Assembly (NCBI GenBank): GCA_964645935.1
Contig: CAZYAK010000003.1
Coordinates: forward strand, 1 to 57,899
Length of the DNA stretch: 57,899 nt
Reading direction: 5' to 3'
DNA from: an uncultured Candidatus Peribacteria bacterium
GTDB taxonomy: Bacteria; Patescibacteriota; Gracilibacteria; Peribacterales; Peribacteraceae
Shown here: positions 3,330 through 42,569 of the stretch, one piece after another
Layout: each line of letters starts with the position of its first letter
Numbering within the stretch: position 1 is the first letter of the stretch
The notes under the pieces: generated by a model
The model's database searches: none
Seen by the model: only the letters and a program-made list of their open reading frames with translations
Told to the model about the DNA's origin: nothing
Position numbers and translations under genes: made by a program

Positions 3330-4904
3330 TCATGGTTGGACGACGTAGCGGACCGTCTTCACCGACGGGAATTGCTTGAGGTTGGCGGAGATCGCGCGCT
3401 GCGCGGAGGTGGAGCTCTCGGTGTCACCCTGGAAGATCTCGGCCAGCGGGCGGGCCAGCCGCACCGTGGCCGTGCCGCCCTGGATGACGACGCCGCGGTA
3501 ATCGTCTCCCGAGAAGCCCCACACGCCGTTGCAGGGCTGGGCCTTCTCGTCGGCGGAGATGGAGGCGTGGAGCATCGCGCGGAGCGTCATGTCCGCCACG
3601 GAGGAGGACTGGGGCACGGTGCGCGTGAGCTTCACGGTGGGCGCCGGGACGTCATGCACGCCCGAGCCGTAGGGGCAGAGCAGGATGCTCACCTCCATGG
3701 TGGGAGCCTCCTGCGCGGCGGGCGCGGGCGCGATGTCCACGGTGTCCAGGAACGCGCGGAAGAGCTGGTCCTGCCCGTCGGAGGAGAGGTATCCGTCCTG
3801 TTGTTGATTGCAGTCCACCGACCGTACGATCACGAGCGTGCGCGTCGCGTCCATGGGGACGAAGGTCGTCTCCCAGCCCTCGCACTCGAGGCCCTCGAAG
3901 TACGAGACGCCTTGGCGCCCGTCCACGGTGACATTCTGGGCGAAGTCCTCGTCGAAGGAGTTGAAGCCGAGCCGCGCGTACACGAGCGGCCGGTCCAGGA
4001 CGCCCACGGAGATCGCCAGCTTGCTCACGGAGGGGCGGCACGGGGCGTCTGGGCCCGCCATACCGTTGCAGCCCTCTGCGGTCTCGTGGCGGCGCACGTG
4101 CGCGACATCCAGGGAGTGCATGCGCTGCAGGTCGCCGGGTACGTAGATGTCACGCACCGTCAGCACGCCTTCCTTGGCGCTGAAGAGCGATCCGGGGTAG
4201 CTGAAGGAGACGTCACGCAGCACGGACGACACCTCGTCGCTGCGCACGTCGTCACCGTCCTCGATGCCGGAGAACCATTCCAGCGACGTGCGGCCGGTAT
4301 CCAAGCGATAGCGCAGCTCCGCCATCTCGCCGCGCGTGAACGGGGCGTCGTAGGCCTCCACGGTGGGCGGCACGGCGTGGCGCGCCAGGAGGGCGGAGGC
4401 GTAGGGCGCGTACCAGCGGTGGTCGTACGCGTCCGCGGGGAGGATGGGCAGCTTGTAGGCGGTGGCGGCGATCTTGGCGGCCTCGGCGTAGTTGATCCAC
4501 GCGTGCGGCGCGAAGCCGCCGTCGGGGTATCCCGAGACGATGCCACGCTCCTTGGCCACGCACACGTACGGCGCGAACCACTCGGTCCTGGGGACGTCGG
4601 GGAAGATGATCTGGGATTTAGCCACGCAGGCCGAGCGCTCCTCGGGGGTGGAAGCGTCCACCACCAGGAGCTTGGTCAGCTCCGCGCGGGTGATGAGGCC
4701 GTCCGGACGGAACGTGCCGTCGGGGTAGCCCTCCACGCTCCCCTTCCCGCGCAGGAACTCGATGGCGGGCGCGGCGGACACGCATCCGCGGACGTCGGAG
4801 AAACCCGTGGCCGCGGCGTTGCAGCCGGTGGTGGCCAGCGCGACGGGAACGGCCAAGAGGGACGTCGACGCGACGGCGGCGGACAGTAGGAGGGAGAGGC
4901 GCAT
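3330..4904 (-). CDS. secreted SLH-domain protein with C-terminal GerMN-like domain
   Basis: Signal peptide MRLSLLLSAAVASTSLLAVPVALA. Two SLH-type repeats (GYPDGTFRPDGLITRAEL, SGYPDGGFAPHAWINYAEAAK). The C-terminal ...GGTATVRLARPL...ANLKQFPSVKTVRYVV looks GerMN-like. Confidence 0.7.
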   Translation of the reverse strand: MRLSLLLSAAVASTSLLAVPVALATTGCNAAATGFSDVRGCVSAAPAIEFLRGKGSVEGYPDGTFRPDGLITRAELTKLLVVDASTPEERSACVAKSQIIFPDVPRTEWFAPYVCVAKERGIVSGYPDGGFAPHAWINYAEAAKIAATAYKLPILPADAYDHRWYAPYASALLARHAVPPTVEAYDAPFTRGEMAELRYRLDTGRTSLEWFSGIEDGDDVRSDEVSSVLRDVSFSYPGSLFSAKEGVLTVRDIYVPGDLQRMHSLDVAHVRRHETAEGCNGMAGPDAPCRPSVSKLAISVGVLDRPLVYARLGFNSFDEDFAQNVTVDGRQGVSYFEGLECEGWETTFVPMDATRTLVIVRSVDCNQQQDGYLSSDGQDQLFRAFLDTVDIAPAPAAQEAPTMEVSILLCPYGSGVHDVPAPTVKLTRTVPQSSSVADMTLRAMLHASISADEKAQPCNGVWGFSGDDYRGVVIQGGTATVRLARPLAEIFQGDTESSTSAQRAISANLKQFPSVKTVRYVVQP

Positions 4905-4992
4905 GGCTGGAGCATAATCCAGAAGCACCAACCTCCAAGCATCAAATTCCAAACCGTTTGGTACTTGGAGGTTGGAAGCTGGTGCTTCGCCG

Positions 4993-5853
4993 TCACACGG
5001 CGATGGGCGCCTTGATGGAGGGCAGCGGGTCGTACCCGACCACCTCGATATCCTCGAAGCGGAACGCGAGGAGGTCCTTCACATCCGGATTGAGCTTGAG
5101 GGTGGGCAGCGGACGCGGCTCGCGCGTCAGCTGCTCCTTGGCCTGGTCCAGGTGGTTGAGGTACAGGTGCGCGTCGCCCATGGTGTGCACGAAGTCGCCG
5201 ACCGCGAGGCCGCACACCTGCGCGATCATGTGCGTGAGCAGCGCGTAGGACGCGATGTTGAAGGGCACGCCCAGGAAGATGTCCGCGGAGCGCTGGTACA
5301 GCTGGCAGCTCAGCTCGGGCTTTCCTGCCCGAGCCCCATCAGACACGTAGAACTGGAAGAGCGTGTGGCACGGAGGCAGCGCCACTTCGTCGGCTTCCGC
5401 GGGGTTCCAGCCCGTCACGATGTGGCGACGGCTGTCGGGGTTCTTCTTGATCCCGTCTACGAGCTTGAGGATCTGGTCGACGCCGTCTTTCTTGAAGGTG
5501 CTGTCCGCGTTGCGCGTCGCGCCGAAGTTGCGCCACTGGTGGCCGTACACGGGCCCTAAGTCCCCCGCCTCGCGGCCGAAGCGCGCGGTCTGCTCCGCAG
5601 TGGCCCACTCGTCCCAGATGGTGACGCCCTGGGCCTGCAGCGTCTTTACATTCGTGTCGCCGGAGAGGAACCAGAGCAGTTCCTTGAAGATGGACCGCGT
5701 CGCGAGCTTTTTGGTGGTGAGCAGCGGGAAGCCTTGGCGCAGGTCGTAGCGCGCCTGGTACCCAAAGACGGACCGCGTCCCCGTGCCCGTGCGGTCGGAC
5801 TTCTCGGTGCCGTGCTCTAGGACATGGCGGAGGAGATCGAGGTACTGCTTCAT
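4993..5853 (-). CDS. thyA: thymidylate synthase (ThyA type)
   Basis: [38 protein letters not shown] is the canonical ThyA N-terminus. Full length, 286 aa. Confidence 0.97.
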
Positions 5854-5973
5854 GGCCCGCGCACACTACCACAAGAATGCGGCGCCGGAACGGCGGCGGG
5901 AATCGCGGCAACAAGACGGCTCCCCCGGTCAGAGACCGGGGGAGGAGCCGCTCAGGGGAGGACGGGGGGGCGG

Positions 5974-6117
5974 CTAGTAGCCGCCCGGAACTGGGTGCTT
6001 GCCCCAGTGGGCGGGTGTTTTCCACCCGCAAACCATGGTGACGTATCCATACCCACCGACGACCACGACGGTCACGATGAACGCGATACGGACGACGTTC
6101 CAGACTTTTCTTAACAT
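5974..6117 (-). CDS. possible small membrane protein (47 aa)
   Basis: Hand-translated as MLRKVWNVVRIAFIVTVVVVGGYGYVTMVCGWKTPAHWGKHPVPGGY. One clear TM helix. GGGAGA lies 7 nt upstream of the ATG. Below the ORF-track size cutoff. Confidence 0.4.
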   Translation of the reverse strand: MLRKVWNVVRIAFIVTVVVVGGYGYVTMVCGWKTPAHWGKHPVPGGY

Positions 6118-6200: not shown

Positions 6201-6209
6201 ATTATATCA
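6201..6209 (-). promoter_or_regulatory. candidate extended -10 (TGATATAAT on the minus strand)
   Basis: An AT-rich island in GC-rich DNA. TGnTATAAT reads on the minus strand. No good -35. Confidence 0.35.
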
Positions 6210-6360
6210 TGCTTGTTCAATAAGTACATTGTCCTCCTTCCGCGCGCACCATCAAAAGAGGCCTGGCGACGGGTGTCGCCAGGCCTCCTGCCAGGAGTAG
6301 ATGGTCTAGAGGGTTCCTCCCGCTTTGCGTGGCAGGAGGGGTTGTTACGTCATAACACGA

Positions 6361-39390: not shown

Positions 39391-40050
39391 TCAACGCACC
39401 TGCCCCTTGCGCCACTCCGCCACCTTGCCGTGGTGGCCGGAGAGCAGGACATCGGGGACGCGCATCCCGCGGAACTCCTCCGGGCGCGTGTAGTGGGGGT
39501 ACTCCTTGCGGCGCCCGAGTATTTTGGAAAAACTCTCTTCCTGCGCCGACTCTTCTTTTCCCAGCACGCCGGGCACGTGCCGCGCGACGGCGTCCAAGAG
39601 AACCATAGCGGGCAGCTCCCCGCCCGTGAGCACGTAGTCGCCGATGGAGACCTCCTCGTCGATCCACCCGTCGATGACACGCTGGTCCACGCCCTCGTAG
39701 CGGCCGCAGAGGAGCAGGAGCCACCCGTGCTTCTTGGCCATCCGCTCCACGCGCGTCTGCGTGAGCCGGTTGCCGCGCGGCGAGAGGTACACGCGGTGCG
39801 GCTTCTTGTCCGCGGGTCCGTCCGCGGACACCTTCTCGATGAGCTTCACCAGCGGTTCGCACATCATGAGCATGCCCGCTCCTCCGCCATACGGGCGGTC
39901 ATCCACCTGGCGGTGCGACCCCGTCCCGAACTCCCGCAGGTCGTGTACATGCACATCCAGGAGCGCCTTCTCCCGCGCCTTCTGCAGGATGCTCTCCGTG
40001 AGCGGGCCGTCGAACATGGCCGGGAAGAGTGTCAGGATGTCGATTCTCAT
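39391..40050 (-). CDS. trmD: tRNA (guanine37-N1)-methyltransferase
   Basis: MRIDILTLFPAMFDGPL..., DDRPYGGGAGMLM and SIGDYVLTGGELPAMVLLDAV. Confidence 0.95.
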   Translation of the reverse strand: MRIDILTLFPAMFDGPLTESILQKAREKALLDVHVHDLREFGTGSHRQVDDRPYGGGAGMLMMCEPLVKLIEKVSADGPADKKPHRVYLSPRGNRLTQTRVERMAKKHGWLLLLCGRYEGVDQRVIDGWIDEEVSIGDYVLTGGELPAMVLLDAVARHVPGVLGKEESAQEESFSKILGRRKEYPHYTRPEEFRGMRVPDVLLSGHHGKVAEWRKGQVR

Positions 40051-40126
40051 GGAATGGAAGAAAGGATGCCTGCCCGGCGGAGCTCCGGCAGGAGCAGAGT
40101 CGGGTCGATGCGCATGCGCCCAGCAT

Positions 40127-40161
40127 ACGCGAAAGCCGCCACGGGAGGAGCCGTGGCGGCG
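40127..40161 (-). terminator. 35-nt hairpin module, copy 1 (terminator of the 40175 gene)
   Basis: Minus strand: GCCGCCACGG-CUCCUC-CCGUGGCGGC-UUUCGCGU. Identical 35-mer at 40705-40739. Confidence 0.6.
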
Positions 40162-40174
40162 GATGTCGGAAGCG

Positions 40175-40483
40175 CTAGGCCTCCGGCGGGGAGGAGAGAC
40201 GGATAACGTCGCCCGTCAACGTGACGGTGAGGACGTCATCCAGGCTGAACAACGCTCCCCTGAAGGGCGCCAGACGCCGTCCGTCCGGCAGGACGAGCGC
40301 GGCGACCTCGAGCCAGACCAGGCTCGAGAGCCCGGTCCTGTGGTGCTCAGACAGGATTTTGCGCTGCACCAGCCCGCTTTCAACCCATTCCATCTCCCAC
40401 ACTCCCCACGGGCGATGGAAGAGACTCAGTTCCCCCTCGAATGGAAGTATCTCCCCAACCGACGTCTTCCAGGTCTCGATCAT
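40175..40483 (-). CDS. hypothetical protein (102 aa)
   Basis: ORF trimmed to MIETWKTS, with GGGAGG 6 nt upstream of the ATG. Confidence 0.6.
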   Translation of the reverse strand: MIETWKTSVGEILPFEGELSLFHRPWGVWEMEWVESGLVQRKILSEHHRTGLSSLVWLEVAALVLPDGRRLAPFRGALFSLDDVLTVTLTGDVIRLSSPPEA

Positions 40484-40670
40484 CGGACACCTCCCACGGC
40501 ACCCGCGCTCGCCCTCCTGCGGCGAGCTGTTACCGCCTCGGGTCAACGGACGCCCGGCCGCGACGTGCGGCAAGGCCCCTCGGTGAGCGAGGGTGGATGG
40601 GAGGTCGGTTCCAAGGAGCGGACACCCAGTATCGCTGCAGCGGCACGGCGGACAACCGATCTGGCCGCGC
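40484..40670 (-). promoter_or_regulatory. structured 5' leader, copy 1 (riboswitch/attenuator candidate)
   Basis: Shares a 30-nt identical box (40489-40518 = 41411-41440) and a 20-nt box (40585-40604 ~ 41510-41529) with the leader of the 41407 gene. The boxes are mutually complementary and sequester GGGAGG. Confidence 0.55.
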
Positions 40671-40704
40671 TTCCAGGAAGACGCGAAACACCGGGAATCC
40701 GCGC

Positions 40705-40739
40705 ACGCGAAAGCCGCCACGGGAGGAGCCGTGGCGGCG
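40705..40739 (-). terminator. 35-nt hairpin module, copy 2 (terminator of the 40766 gene)
   Basis: Identical to 40127-40161. Confidence 0.6.
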
Positions 40740-40765
40740 CGCCGGAAACCCCGGGGGGCCTCCGG

Positions 40766-41407
40766 TCAGAGGGTCAGGACCAGTGTCTGGCCGCCGCGTT
40801 CGGCGACCCAGAGCTTGGGCATCTGGCTCGGATCGAGCGGGGACGGGTCCAGGAACACCAGGCCGTCGAACGACGGCACCAGAGTTCCGTTGGGGAGAAC
40901 CAGGTCGTCTCGCACATGCATGGGCAGCTGGGACACGGCGACCCATGACGAGTGTGACTCACCCCGACGGATGAAGTACGCCACCCAGCCACCTCGATAC
41001 ATGAACAGACGCACGCCGCTCTTGGGTTCGAGGGCCTCGTGCAGGCGTTCGTGTGTCCAGGCCGTAAGATGGCCTGACGTACCCACAGACGCATGGGCAG
41101 GGAAGACGTGCGTGCGGCCGCCAGCGTCCGCAACCCAGACGACTCCCCCGACATCTGGATCGGCGATGATGACGCCCGTGAAGGGCTCCATCACGCATGC
41201 TCCTAACACGAGCAGGTTACCCTCGGAGACGAGAACGGGGTGGTGGTGCGCCAGCCGGTGGTGCGAGCCACCCGTGACGATGGTTTCGGGTCGGTACAAC
41301 ACCGACCAGTCCCCTCTGTACTCGTCTTCCGGTGCGAGGATGACTCCGGGGTCGCGCAGCTGGTGCGCGACACGTTCGTTCGATTCCCAGAAACTGATAC
41401 TGGACAT
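40766..41407 (-). CDS. hypothetical protein (213 aa), His-rich N-terminal part
   Basis: ORF trimmed to MSSISFWES, with GGGAGG 4 nt upstream of the ATG. Confidence 0.6.
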   Translation of the reverse strand: MSSISFWESNERVAHQLRDPGVILAPEDEYRGDWSVLYRPETIVTGGSHHRLAHHHPVLVSEGNLLVLGACVMEPFTGVIIADPDVGGVVWVADAGGRTHVFPAHASVGTSGHLTAWTHERLHEALEPKSGVRLFMYRGGWVAYFIRRGESHSSWVAVSQLPMHVRDDLVLPNGTLVPSFDGLVFLDPSPLDPSQMPKLWVAERGGQTLVLTL

Positions 41408-41651
41408 GGTACCTCCCACGGCACCCGCGCTCGCCCTCCTCGGCGAACAGGTATGCCGCGAAGTGAAGCGTGGACCCAACCGCGGAGCGCGGCCAGACCC
41501 CCTCGCGATGAGCGAGGGTGGGTGGGAGGAAATGCCAAAGAGCGGCCGATCAGTGTGCCAGGGCCACCCGCGGACGCAAGTGCAGGGGTGTGGCAACCAG
41601 CGTGTGCGCCAGTTATGTTGTGGCTCATCCCCCCCACGCGGGACAACCGGC
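41408..41651 (-). promoter_or_regulatory. structured 5' leader, copy 2 (riboswitch/attenuator candidate)
   Basis: See copy 1. It fills the whole korB-to-ORF spacer. Confidence 0.55.
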
Positions 41652-42569
41652 TCAGATGAAGTCCTTCCAGAGCCCGCTCACGTCCACCCGCTCCACCTCC
41701 TCCACGGCGGTGGTCTCCCTCCCTTTCCGGGGCTCTAAGCGATCGTAGAAGCTGGGGACATCCGTGCGGCGGTAGAGGACACCGGTGGCGATGCGCTCGG
41801 AGACGTCCAAGGTGAGCGCGCGGGCCTTCTGGATATCGCAGGCCGGATCGTGGCCCTCCGCGTTGGCGTCGTAGCACTTGGCCAGGAGGTACTCGTGCGT
41901 GGCGAAGCGGTTGTAGGTGGGGCAAGCCTGCAGGACGTCCACGAACGCGAAACCGTGCTGCTGGTGGAGGATGGCCTGCTTGAAGAGCTGCGTGAGCTGC
42001 ACAATGTCGCCCGAGAACCCGCGCGCCACGAACGTGGGCTCCAGCGAGTACACGAAATCCATGGAGTTGATGGTGTGCTCGGGGATGCCGTTGGGAGAGG
42101 AGTTCATGGGCTGGCCCTGCCAGGTCAGCGAGCTAGCCTGGCCCGTGGTGAGCCCGTAGTTGGCGTTGTTGTGGAGAACGAACGTGATGGGGTAGTTGCT
42201 GCGGATGCTATGGACGAGATGACCCACACCCTCCGAGAAGCTGGCGCCGTCGCCGCCAAAGGCGATGACGGGCAAGCGCGGGTTGGCGAGCTTCGCACCG
42301 GCGGCGAAGGGCAGCACGCGGCCGTGCAGTCCGTGGAAGCGGTACCCCTTGAGTTTGTCCGAACCGTTGCCATGGCAGCCCACGTCGTAGCAGAGCAAGG
42401 CCTGCCACGGGGCGATGTTTAGCTCCACAAGTGCGCGCTTGATGGCCGTCCAGATGCCGTAGTCGCCGCAGCCGTCACACCACGTACACCTGTTCGCGCA
42501 GGCGTACTGCCCCATGGTGGGAGCCTGTGTGGAGTCTGCCGAGGGATCAATGTGGAGGGGAATGCTCAT
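41652..42569 (-). CDS. korB: 2-oxoacid:ferredoxin oxidoreductase, beta (TPP-binding) subunit
   Basis: CDGCGDYGI, GCHGNGS and AFGGDGASFSEGVGHL TPP motif. Start at MSIPLH, overlapping the alpha stop (ATGA). Confidence 0.9.
   Translation of the reverse strand: MSIPLHIDPSADSTQAPTMGQYACANRCTWCDGCGDYGIWTAIKRALVELNIAPWQALLCYDVGCHGNGSDKLKGYRFHGLHGRVLPFAAGAKLANPRLPVIAFGGDGASFSEGVGHLVHSIRSNYPITFVLHNNANYGLTTGQASSLTWQGQPMNSSPNGIPEHTINSMDFVYSLEPTFVARGFSGDIVQLTQLFKQAILHQQHGFAFVDVLQACPTYNRFATHEYLLAKCYDANAEGHDPACDIQKARALTLDVSERIATGVLYRRTDVPSFYDRLEPRKGRETTAVEEVERVDVSGLWKDFI

Follow-up and report, generated by a model that had tools for sequence, protein, structure and literature searches.

A probably start-occluding leader RNA shared by two orphan genes, likely old paralogues, in a Peribacteria-like genome

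The two orphan genes described here, probably old paralogues, carry a common 5′ leader in which two complementary boxes are predicted to pair with each other and to bury the start codon, and this shared leader is probably functional and, in fold models of both copies, start-occluding. The genes lie in a window of 57,899 bp and ~65% G+C, by which we mean the whole stretch of DNA analyzed, a complete NCBI contig. An initial annotation had presented the leaders as an orphan riboswitch or attenuator responding to a common signal. Its argument for conservation at the nucleotide or RNA level held and is supported by the comparison of the two sequences, but no aptamer-like conserved core, covariation or other instance of the element came to light. 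The leader is not a demonstrated riboswitch, it is not a family, and it does not stand upstream of unrelated genes.

All elements of the locus lie on the minus strand between the 2-oxoacid:ferredoxin oxidoreductase beta gene (OFOR-beta, with TPP_enzyme_C and PFO_beta_C domains), which ends at 41652, and trmD (40050-39391). Reading downstream from OFOR-beta, we find leader copy 2 (41408-41545 from the putative transcription start, 41408-41651 for the whole upstream span), the 213-aa orphan ORF (40766..41407), a 35-nt terminator-like hairpin (40705..40739), leader copy 1 (40484..40621 from the putative transcription start, with an upstream region reaching to ~40670), the 102-aa orphan ORF (40175..40483) and an identical terminator-like hairpin (40127..40161; GCCGCCACGG-CUCCUC-CCGUGGCGGC-UUUCGCGU). 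The TrmD of the window is 66-80% identical to that of the relatives listed, of which the named ones are Candidatus Peregrinibacteria or Peribacteraceae. The OFOR-beta/trmD junction is a variable spot, spanning 40050-41652 in the window and 4665-6000, 4535-6000 and 5968-6001 in the relatives' loci L001, L005 and L006. OFOR-beta and trmD adjoin in L006 with no insert, while L001 and L005 have inserts of their own that are unrelated to the window's (three different inserts), and the whole leader-ORF insert was absent from the relatives' junctions examined. In the closest relative, L001, a ACACCUCC ... GGAGGUGU hairpin was seen by eye at 4765-4825 (+), in an unrelated and more A+T-rich intergenic insert; it gave no match to the leader covariance model.

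The downstream proteins had been described as lacking any similarity to each other, a view that was overturned by blastp, permutation tests and a three-way alignment, which point to a shared domain. Within the 213-aa protein, residues 30-101 and 137-210 are 32% identical (E 8e-5; permutation p 0.0007), and to judge from this repeat the protein is an internal tandem duplication of a ~100-aa domain. The 102-aa protein carries a single copy of that domain and has weak colinear similarity to either half of the larger one (blastp plus permutation, p 0.012 and 0.020). Motifs common to the three aligned segments are a W near the N-terminus, YRG/FEG-W, SHH and LVLP.G..PF.G. Homology between the copies is also found in the start region, as GUCC...AUC...UGG shifted by a 5-nt indel, and around the stop codons, where 63 nt are 83% identical and include the identical 35-nt hairpin; this 3′ homology begins at CCGGAGGCC, at or just past the stop codons. 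The two genes are probably distant, old paralogues, and a shared leader is therefore expected from duplication and is no evidence of a regulon. The main practical value of this case is one of caution, as a common leader before seemingly "unrelated" genes can simply mark an old tandem duplication.

Both ORFs have a coding-type distribution of G+C over the three codon positions (0.65/0.45/0.81 for the 102-aa ORF and 0.70/0.46/0.77 for the 213-aa ORF), like trmD. No Pfam, NCBIfam, PHROG or PADLOC family was found for either of them. A word-seeded search for homologues of the ORFs returned the query alone, and a full HMMER profile search of 1.84 billion representatives yielded no homologue, only two extra matches to repetitive junk. 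For the 102-aa ORF, with its single copy of the domain, the AF2 model is all-beta, with a pLDDT of 63, and Foldseek comparison of this model with the PDB returned nothing with an E below 0.39.

The leaders themselves are homologous and align by blastn over 171 nt, with 74% identity (E 1e-20). The 30-nt box AGGAGGGCGAGCGCGGGTGCCGTGGGAGGT has exactly two occurrences, both on the minus strand (40489-40518 and 41411-41440; chance expectation 0), and its match grows to 36-37 nt if one indel is allowed. The resulting 3′ box lies at 40489..40525 in copy 1 (UCGCCGCAGGAGGGCGAGCGCGGGUGCCGUGGGAGGU, with GGGAGG at 40490-40495), where it ends 5 nt before the AUG, and at 41411..41446 in copy 2, where it ends 3 nt before the AUG. 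The 5′ box, CCTCCCAYCCACCCTCGCTCA, is a C/U-rich 21-mer that also occurs twice, with one differing base (the Y position), at 40584..40604 (CCUCCCAUCCACCCUCGCUCA) and 41509..41529 (CCUCCCACCCACCCUCGCUCA). The identical 3′ box and near-identical 5′ box had been noted correctly in the initial annotation, with two minus-strand copies of each, and so had the CGGTTGTCC and GCTCYTTGG elements common to both leaders further upstream. The former is part of a shared 15-nt box, CGGTTGTCC(C/G)(G/C)CGTG, which in copy 1 (40644-40658) overlaps the -35-like element. Its copy 2 version, CGGTTGTCCCGCGTG (41635..41649; family D4, 87% identity to the counterpart), lies directly after the OFOR-beta stop codon, ~85 nt further upstream.

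The 3′ box stands in different reading frames relative to the two AUGs. We considered and rejected the boxes as coding sequence, as the two ORFs, when extended upstream in frame, do not read the 3′ box in the same frame. Two plus-strand ORFs (39734-40948 and 40593-41738) read both boxes in one frame, as PPTAPALALL ... SEGGWE, 22 vs 23 codons apart. These were judged to be shadow frames and discarded, since they overlap trmD and OFOR-beta on the opposite strand and G+C by codon position speaks against them.

A putative promoter precedes the 5′ box in each copy, with TTGTCC, 16 nt and GATACT at 40628..40655 (hexamer at 40628-40633) in copy 1, and TTGCGT, 16 nt and CACACT at 41552..41579 (hexamer at 41552-41557) in copy 2. 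In both copies, 23 nt separate the 5′ box from the -10-like hexamer upstream of it (GATACT in copy 1, CACACT in copy 2). These two hexamers resemble the TAnAnT type, typically TACACT, that precedes the ATG of many window genes by 6-10 nt. From the position of the -10-like hexamer we infer the transcription start and 5′ end of the leader, so that the 5′ box would fall inside a leader of ~138 nt.

At the other end of the transcripts, the 35-nt hairpin is identical after both ORFs, has a 9-10-bp G+C stem followed by UUU, and is of the same type as other terminator-like hairpins found after genes in the window. Its CUCCUC(CC) loop shares the CCUCC(C) motif with the 5′ box and is complementary to GGGAGG and AGGAGG of the 3′ box, and an interaction of the 3′-end hairpin with the 5′ leader, or in trans, is conceivable on the basis of these motifs. 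The CcsR or "cuckoo" sRNAs (RF02791) carry CCUCCUCCC in their hairpin loops, and CcsR1 gave a weak match at 40686-40749 (19.2 bits vs a gathering score of 65.3; E 0.12). We rejected the hairpin as a CcsR1 homologue, as it scored below the gathering score and is a single hairpin at an mRNA 3′ end, not a multi-hairpin sRNA.

The 5′ and 3′ boxes are complementary to each other and form a long-range helix, as the initial annotation had recognized. The predicted duplex has an energy of -34.1 kcal/mol, a value reached by none of 2000 shuffled 5′ boxes and by 0.2% of random 21-mers from the window. CCUCCC:GGGAGG has a pair probability of ~1.0 in both leaders, despite differently folding interiors. 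This closing helix, in which the 5′ box provides the 5′ strand and the 3′ box the 3′ strand, extends outward so that the AUG region is paired as well, through UUGGA:UCCGA in copy 1 and UUGGCAU:AUG-U-CCAG in copy 2. The AUG is predicted to be mostly paired, with an unpaired probability of ~0.01-0.17, except for the central U in copy 1. In the favored fold of both copies, the AUG and the purine-rich element are paired with the upstream complementary strand. With the AUG drawn into the closing helix, the start of translation would be occluded by default, and the leader would exert translational control. Opening the start region costs 11-14 kcal/mol (13.6 in copy 1 and 14.0 in copy 2 for GGGAGG through AUG), and forcing the 5′ box open costs 14.2 (copy 1) and 16.2 (copy 2) kcal/mol. 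As long as transcription has not reached the 3′ box, a local hairpin is predicted to hold the 5′ box in part. We found no equilibrium alternative fold of comparable energy that frees the start region, and for this reason regulated switching is a guess. The folding energy of the whole leader is no better than that of shuffles, with z-scores of -0.48 and -0.88.

Within the leader, the interior varies and the closing helix does not, not even at its predicted bulge and loop bases. An inner GC-rich hairpin at 40552..40576 in copy 1 (GCCUUGCCGC-ACGUC-GCGGCCGGGC) is kept in both copies via G-C to G-U changes only. In the two-sequence alignment, 31 of the 37 consensus pairs are invariant. The six that differ between the copies all keep pairing; in five of them only one side has changed, always from G-C to G-U, and in the sixth both sides have. 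The single both-sided change sits in a small hairpin 5′ of the boxes, and a count this high, resting on two sequences only, is indistinguishable from shuffles (233/500). The covariation proposed earlier is thus not borne out, and neither of the compensatory changes suggested for the interior survived closer alignment. In CCCUCG/CGAGGG vs CCCUCGC/GCGAGGG, the 5′ strand lies within the conserved box and one extra pair comes from an insertion, and GGCG/CGCC vs CGGC/GCCG reflects register shifts within a shared GCGG...CGCCG. The contrast between an invariant closing helix and a variable interior is the opposite of that in a typical riboswitch and fits recognition of the helix or of the boxes themselves.

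The explanation towards which we lean is a lineage-specific cassette that was duplicated in tandem, whose boxes have been kept by selection, and in which default occlusion of the start is released by some trigger. A unit made of a promoter, a 5′ leader of ~140 nt, an ORF and an intrinsic terminator would have been duplicated in tandem between OFOR-beta and trmD in a Peribacteria-like (CPR) genome. The coding parts would then have drifted almost to randomness, with one copy duplicating its domain internally, while three short non-coding patches, namely the two boxes and the terminator hairpin, would have been held at 91-100% identity. In the RNA, the C/U-rich 5′ box and the purine-rich 3′ box would close a multi-branched domain by a helix that reaches the AUG. 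Expression would need this helix to be opened or cut, be it by a trans-acting RNA or protein, a helicase, or cleavage by RNase III, and the closing helix may in addition shield the mRNA at its 5′ end. By analogy, the interrupted helix, at ~20 bp, is comparable in size to substrates of RNase III.

Leaders of comparable design are known from other bacteria. In the E. coli rpoS leader the start is occluded by a long-range helix that is opened by the sRNAs DsrA, RprA and ArcZ, and in the adhE leader an inhibitory helix is opened by RNase III cleavage. The leader described here resembles both in that an upstream pyrimidine-rich strand, ~100 nt from the AUG, pairs with a purine-rich element and the start codon, with the closed form strongly favored. 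Unlike in rpoS and adhE, to which it has no sequence homology, an activator RNA or cleavage site is hypothetical here, and the host lineage barely uses Shine-Dalgarno sites. RNA thermometers such as ROSE and fourU are likewise built on an imperfect helix with internal loops that occludes a purine-rich element before the AUG, but the leader helix is G+C-rich and, with a duplex energy of -34.1 kcal/mol, far too stable. Neither ROSE nor FourU was among the Rfam matches listed at E up to 10 for 39900-41900.

Over the aligned codons of the ORF copies, DNA identity is 39-48%, and third positions, at 33-44%, are saturated for the base composition. Along the leaders, the 5′ and 3′ boxes are 91% and 93% identical, respectively (100% over 30 nt of the 3′ box), as against 57% for the 5′ flank, 54% for the middle (63% after realignment, vs 52% for shuffles) and 45% for the start region. 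Because third positions are saturated and the boxes are 91-100% identical, purifying selection probably acts on both boxes and on the terminator hairpin. A recent copy is unlikely because the similarity forms a mosaic instead of being uniform, and the boxes would have been lost had they decayed neutrally since an old duplication. These data bear on the alternative that the leaders have no function, being leftovers of the duplication kept alike by gene conversion, or flanks recently copied onto two ORFs, which we regard as unlikely. The locus does offer an ideal geometry for conversion, with two tandem copies only, 0.9 kb apart, and the two-sequence alignment contains no covariation. However, a recent copy predicts a near-identical leader over the 171 nt, and we see boxes at 100% beside spacers at ~55% with indels; conversion tracts need flanking homology, which the saturated coding sequence and the spacers do not offer; and complementarity of the conserved boxes beyond chance is unexplained by conversion alone.

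We give little credence to a second alternative, in which the two leaders are the only visible members of a new lineage-restricted cis-regulatory RNA, in a CPR bacterium that otherwise hardly ever uses Shine-Dalgarno sites, and its invariant CCUCCC...GGGAGG clamp gates the only strong SD-like starts of the region in response to a ligand, a partner RNA (e.g., the terminator hairpin with its CCUCC loop) or the encoded proteins.

The clearest SD-like sites among ~6 candidates in the window are those of the two orphan genes, and most window genes lack a Shine-Dalgarno site, for example those at 2530(-), 10002(-), 11857(+), 40050(-), 20788(+), 32903(-) and 34266(-). This scarcity fits the published status of the Peribacteria, as Ca. 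Peribacter riflensis is SD-scarce, with an SD in 7% of its genes (PMC10783764). In the same survey, the 16S tails of Peribacteria are listed as GAACACUUCCUUA, which is without CCUCC (PMC10783764), and GGGAGG is a doubtful ribosome-binding site because of this reported tail. From its letters, GGGAGG could pair with CUUCC through G-U pairs; the Rfam scan found no 16S gene of the source organism in the window. The earlier claim that the helix buries an SD-like GGGAGG therefore stands as far as occlusion is concerned, which is predicted in both copies, but not in the Shine-Dalgarno role of the element, which is doubtful. As a separate observation, window genes include one class of starts with a C/U-rich tract directly before the ATG (e.g., TTCCTTACCCCCCTTCCCCC-ATG) and another, seemingly leaderless, in which the TAnAnT hexamer precedes the ATG by 6-10 nt.

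Should the clamp prove functional, post-transcriptional control in a bacterium of the Candidate Phyla Radiation would gain one of its rare documented examples. The locus would then also be a small natural experiment, its non-coding boxes unchanged although the proteins under their control have diverged almost beyond recognition. No generalization follows from this, because the case consists of two orphan genes in one metagenome-assembled genome.

It seems to us quite improbable that the boxes act as DNA, as operators or promoter parts, with the RNA pairing being incidental. The boxes are identical even at predicted loop or bulge positions, and the shared CGGTTGTCC box overlaps a -35-like site, both of which would suit DNA-level elements. 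Nevertheless, the probable -10 element is ~20-140 nt upstream of the boxes, the 3′ box lies right next to the AUG, and the two boxes are significantly complementary to each other, a property that operators do not need.

Searches for further copies and families weigh on the riboswitch interpretation. No Rfam family matched at the gathering score in the whole window, and at E up to 10 the region 39900-41900 gave only sub-threshold noise of sRNA and miRNA type. The initial annotation had named absence of the motif elsewhere as counting against its proposal, and only the two copies were found across genome, metagenome and viral collections and the relatives' loci. A 24-mer of the 3′ box had no match in 185,579 species genomes. 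The 5′ box had four matches in the same genomes (Gemmatimonadota, Sulfomarinibacteraceae and Nitrososphaera), none with a partner box, and because the partner is lacking we take these to be due to chance. A degenerate 3′ box gave only two chance matches in JGI metagenomes, and neither the 3′ box nor the hairpin matched any viral contig. These pattern scans require exact words and could therefore miss diverged copies. The covariance model R1, run over the window and 11 loci, recovered only the two known copies; a 16-bit match at 6208-6352 was unrelated on inspection.

A ligand-sensing riboswitch, in which the closing helix would be P1 and expression platform at once and the enclosed hairpins the aptamer, is in our judgment very improbable. 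Its appeal lies in the multi-branch architecture, whose closing helix takes in the start region, and in the strong conservation of the boxes, the 30-nt box being identical. In this respect the leader resembles platforms that sequester the SD, such as the thiM TPP and SAM-II types, where a multi-stem domain just ahead of the AUG is closed by a helix of the anti-SD:SD type. Unlike those platforms, the leader is without a conserved aptamer core, an Rfam match, phylogenetic spread, covariation or association with metabolic genes. The would-be aptamer interior is the least conserved part (54-63% identity, with indels), no Rfam family was found even at E up to 10, the collections searched held no other instance, and no low-energy alternative fold frees the start region. 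A recurrent link to one metabolic or transport pathway is also absent, as the downstream genes are two paralogous orphans whose proteins have no metabolic or transport link.

The least credible reading, in which the boxes are terminal inverted repeats of a MITE or Correia-like element inserted independently before two genes, does account for conserved, imperfect inverted repeats ~100 nt apart, beside genes and with variable sequence between them, as in Correia/MITE repeats whose hairpins are cleaved by RNase III when co-transcribed, but here the homology runs at least 45 nt past the 5′ box and also into the start region and coding sequence, no target-site duplication flanks the boxes, both copies lie at the same distance from paralogous start codons, and there are only two copies, with no third in the 58 kb window or in any collection searched.

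Only one other contig was found to contain the 213-aa protein, a 904-bp Logan contig (SRR8893623) that is identical to window positions 40710-41613. This contig, an independent assembly of the same population, begins in the upstream leader region and breaks off in the repeated hairpin. Its ends show how the leader and hairpin repeats fragment short-read assemblies.
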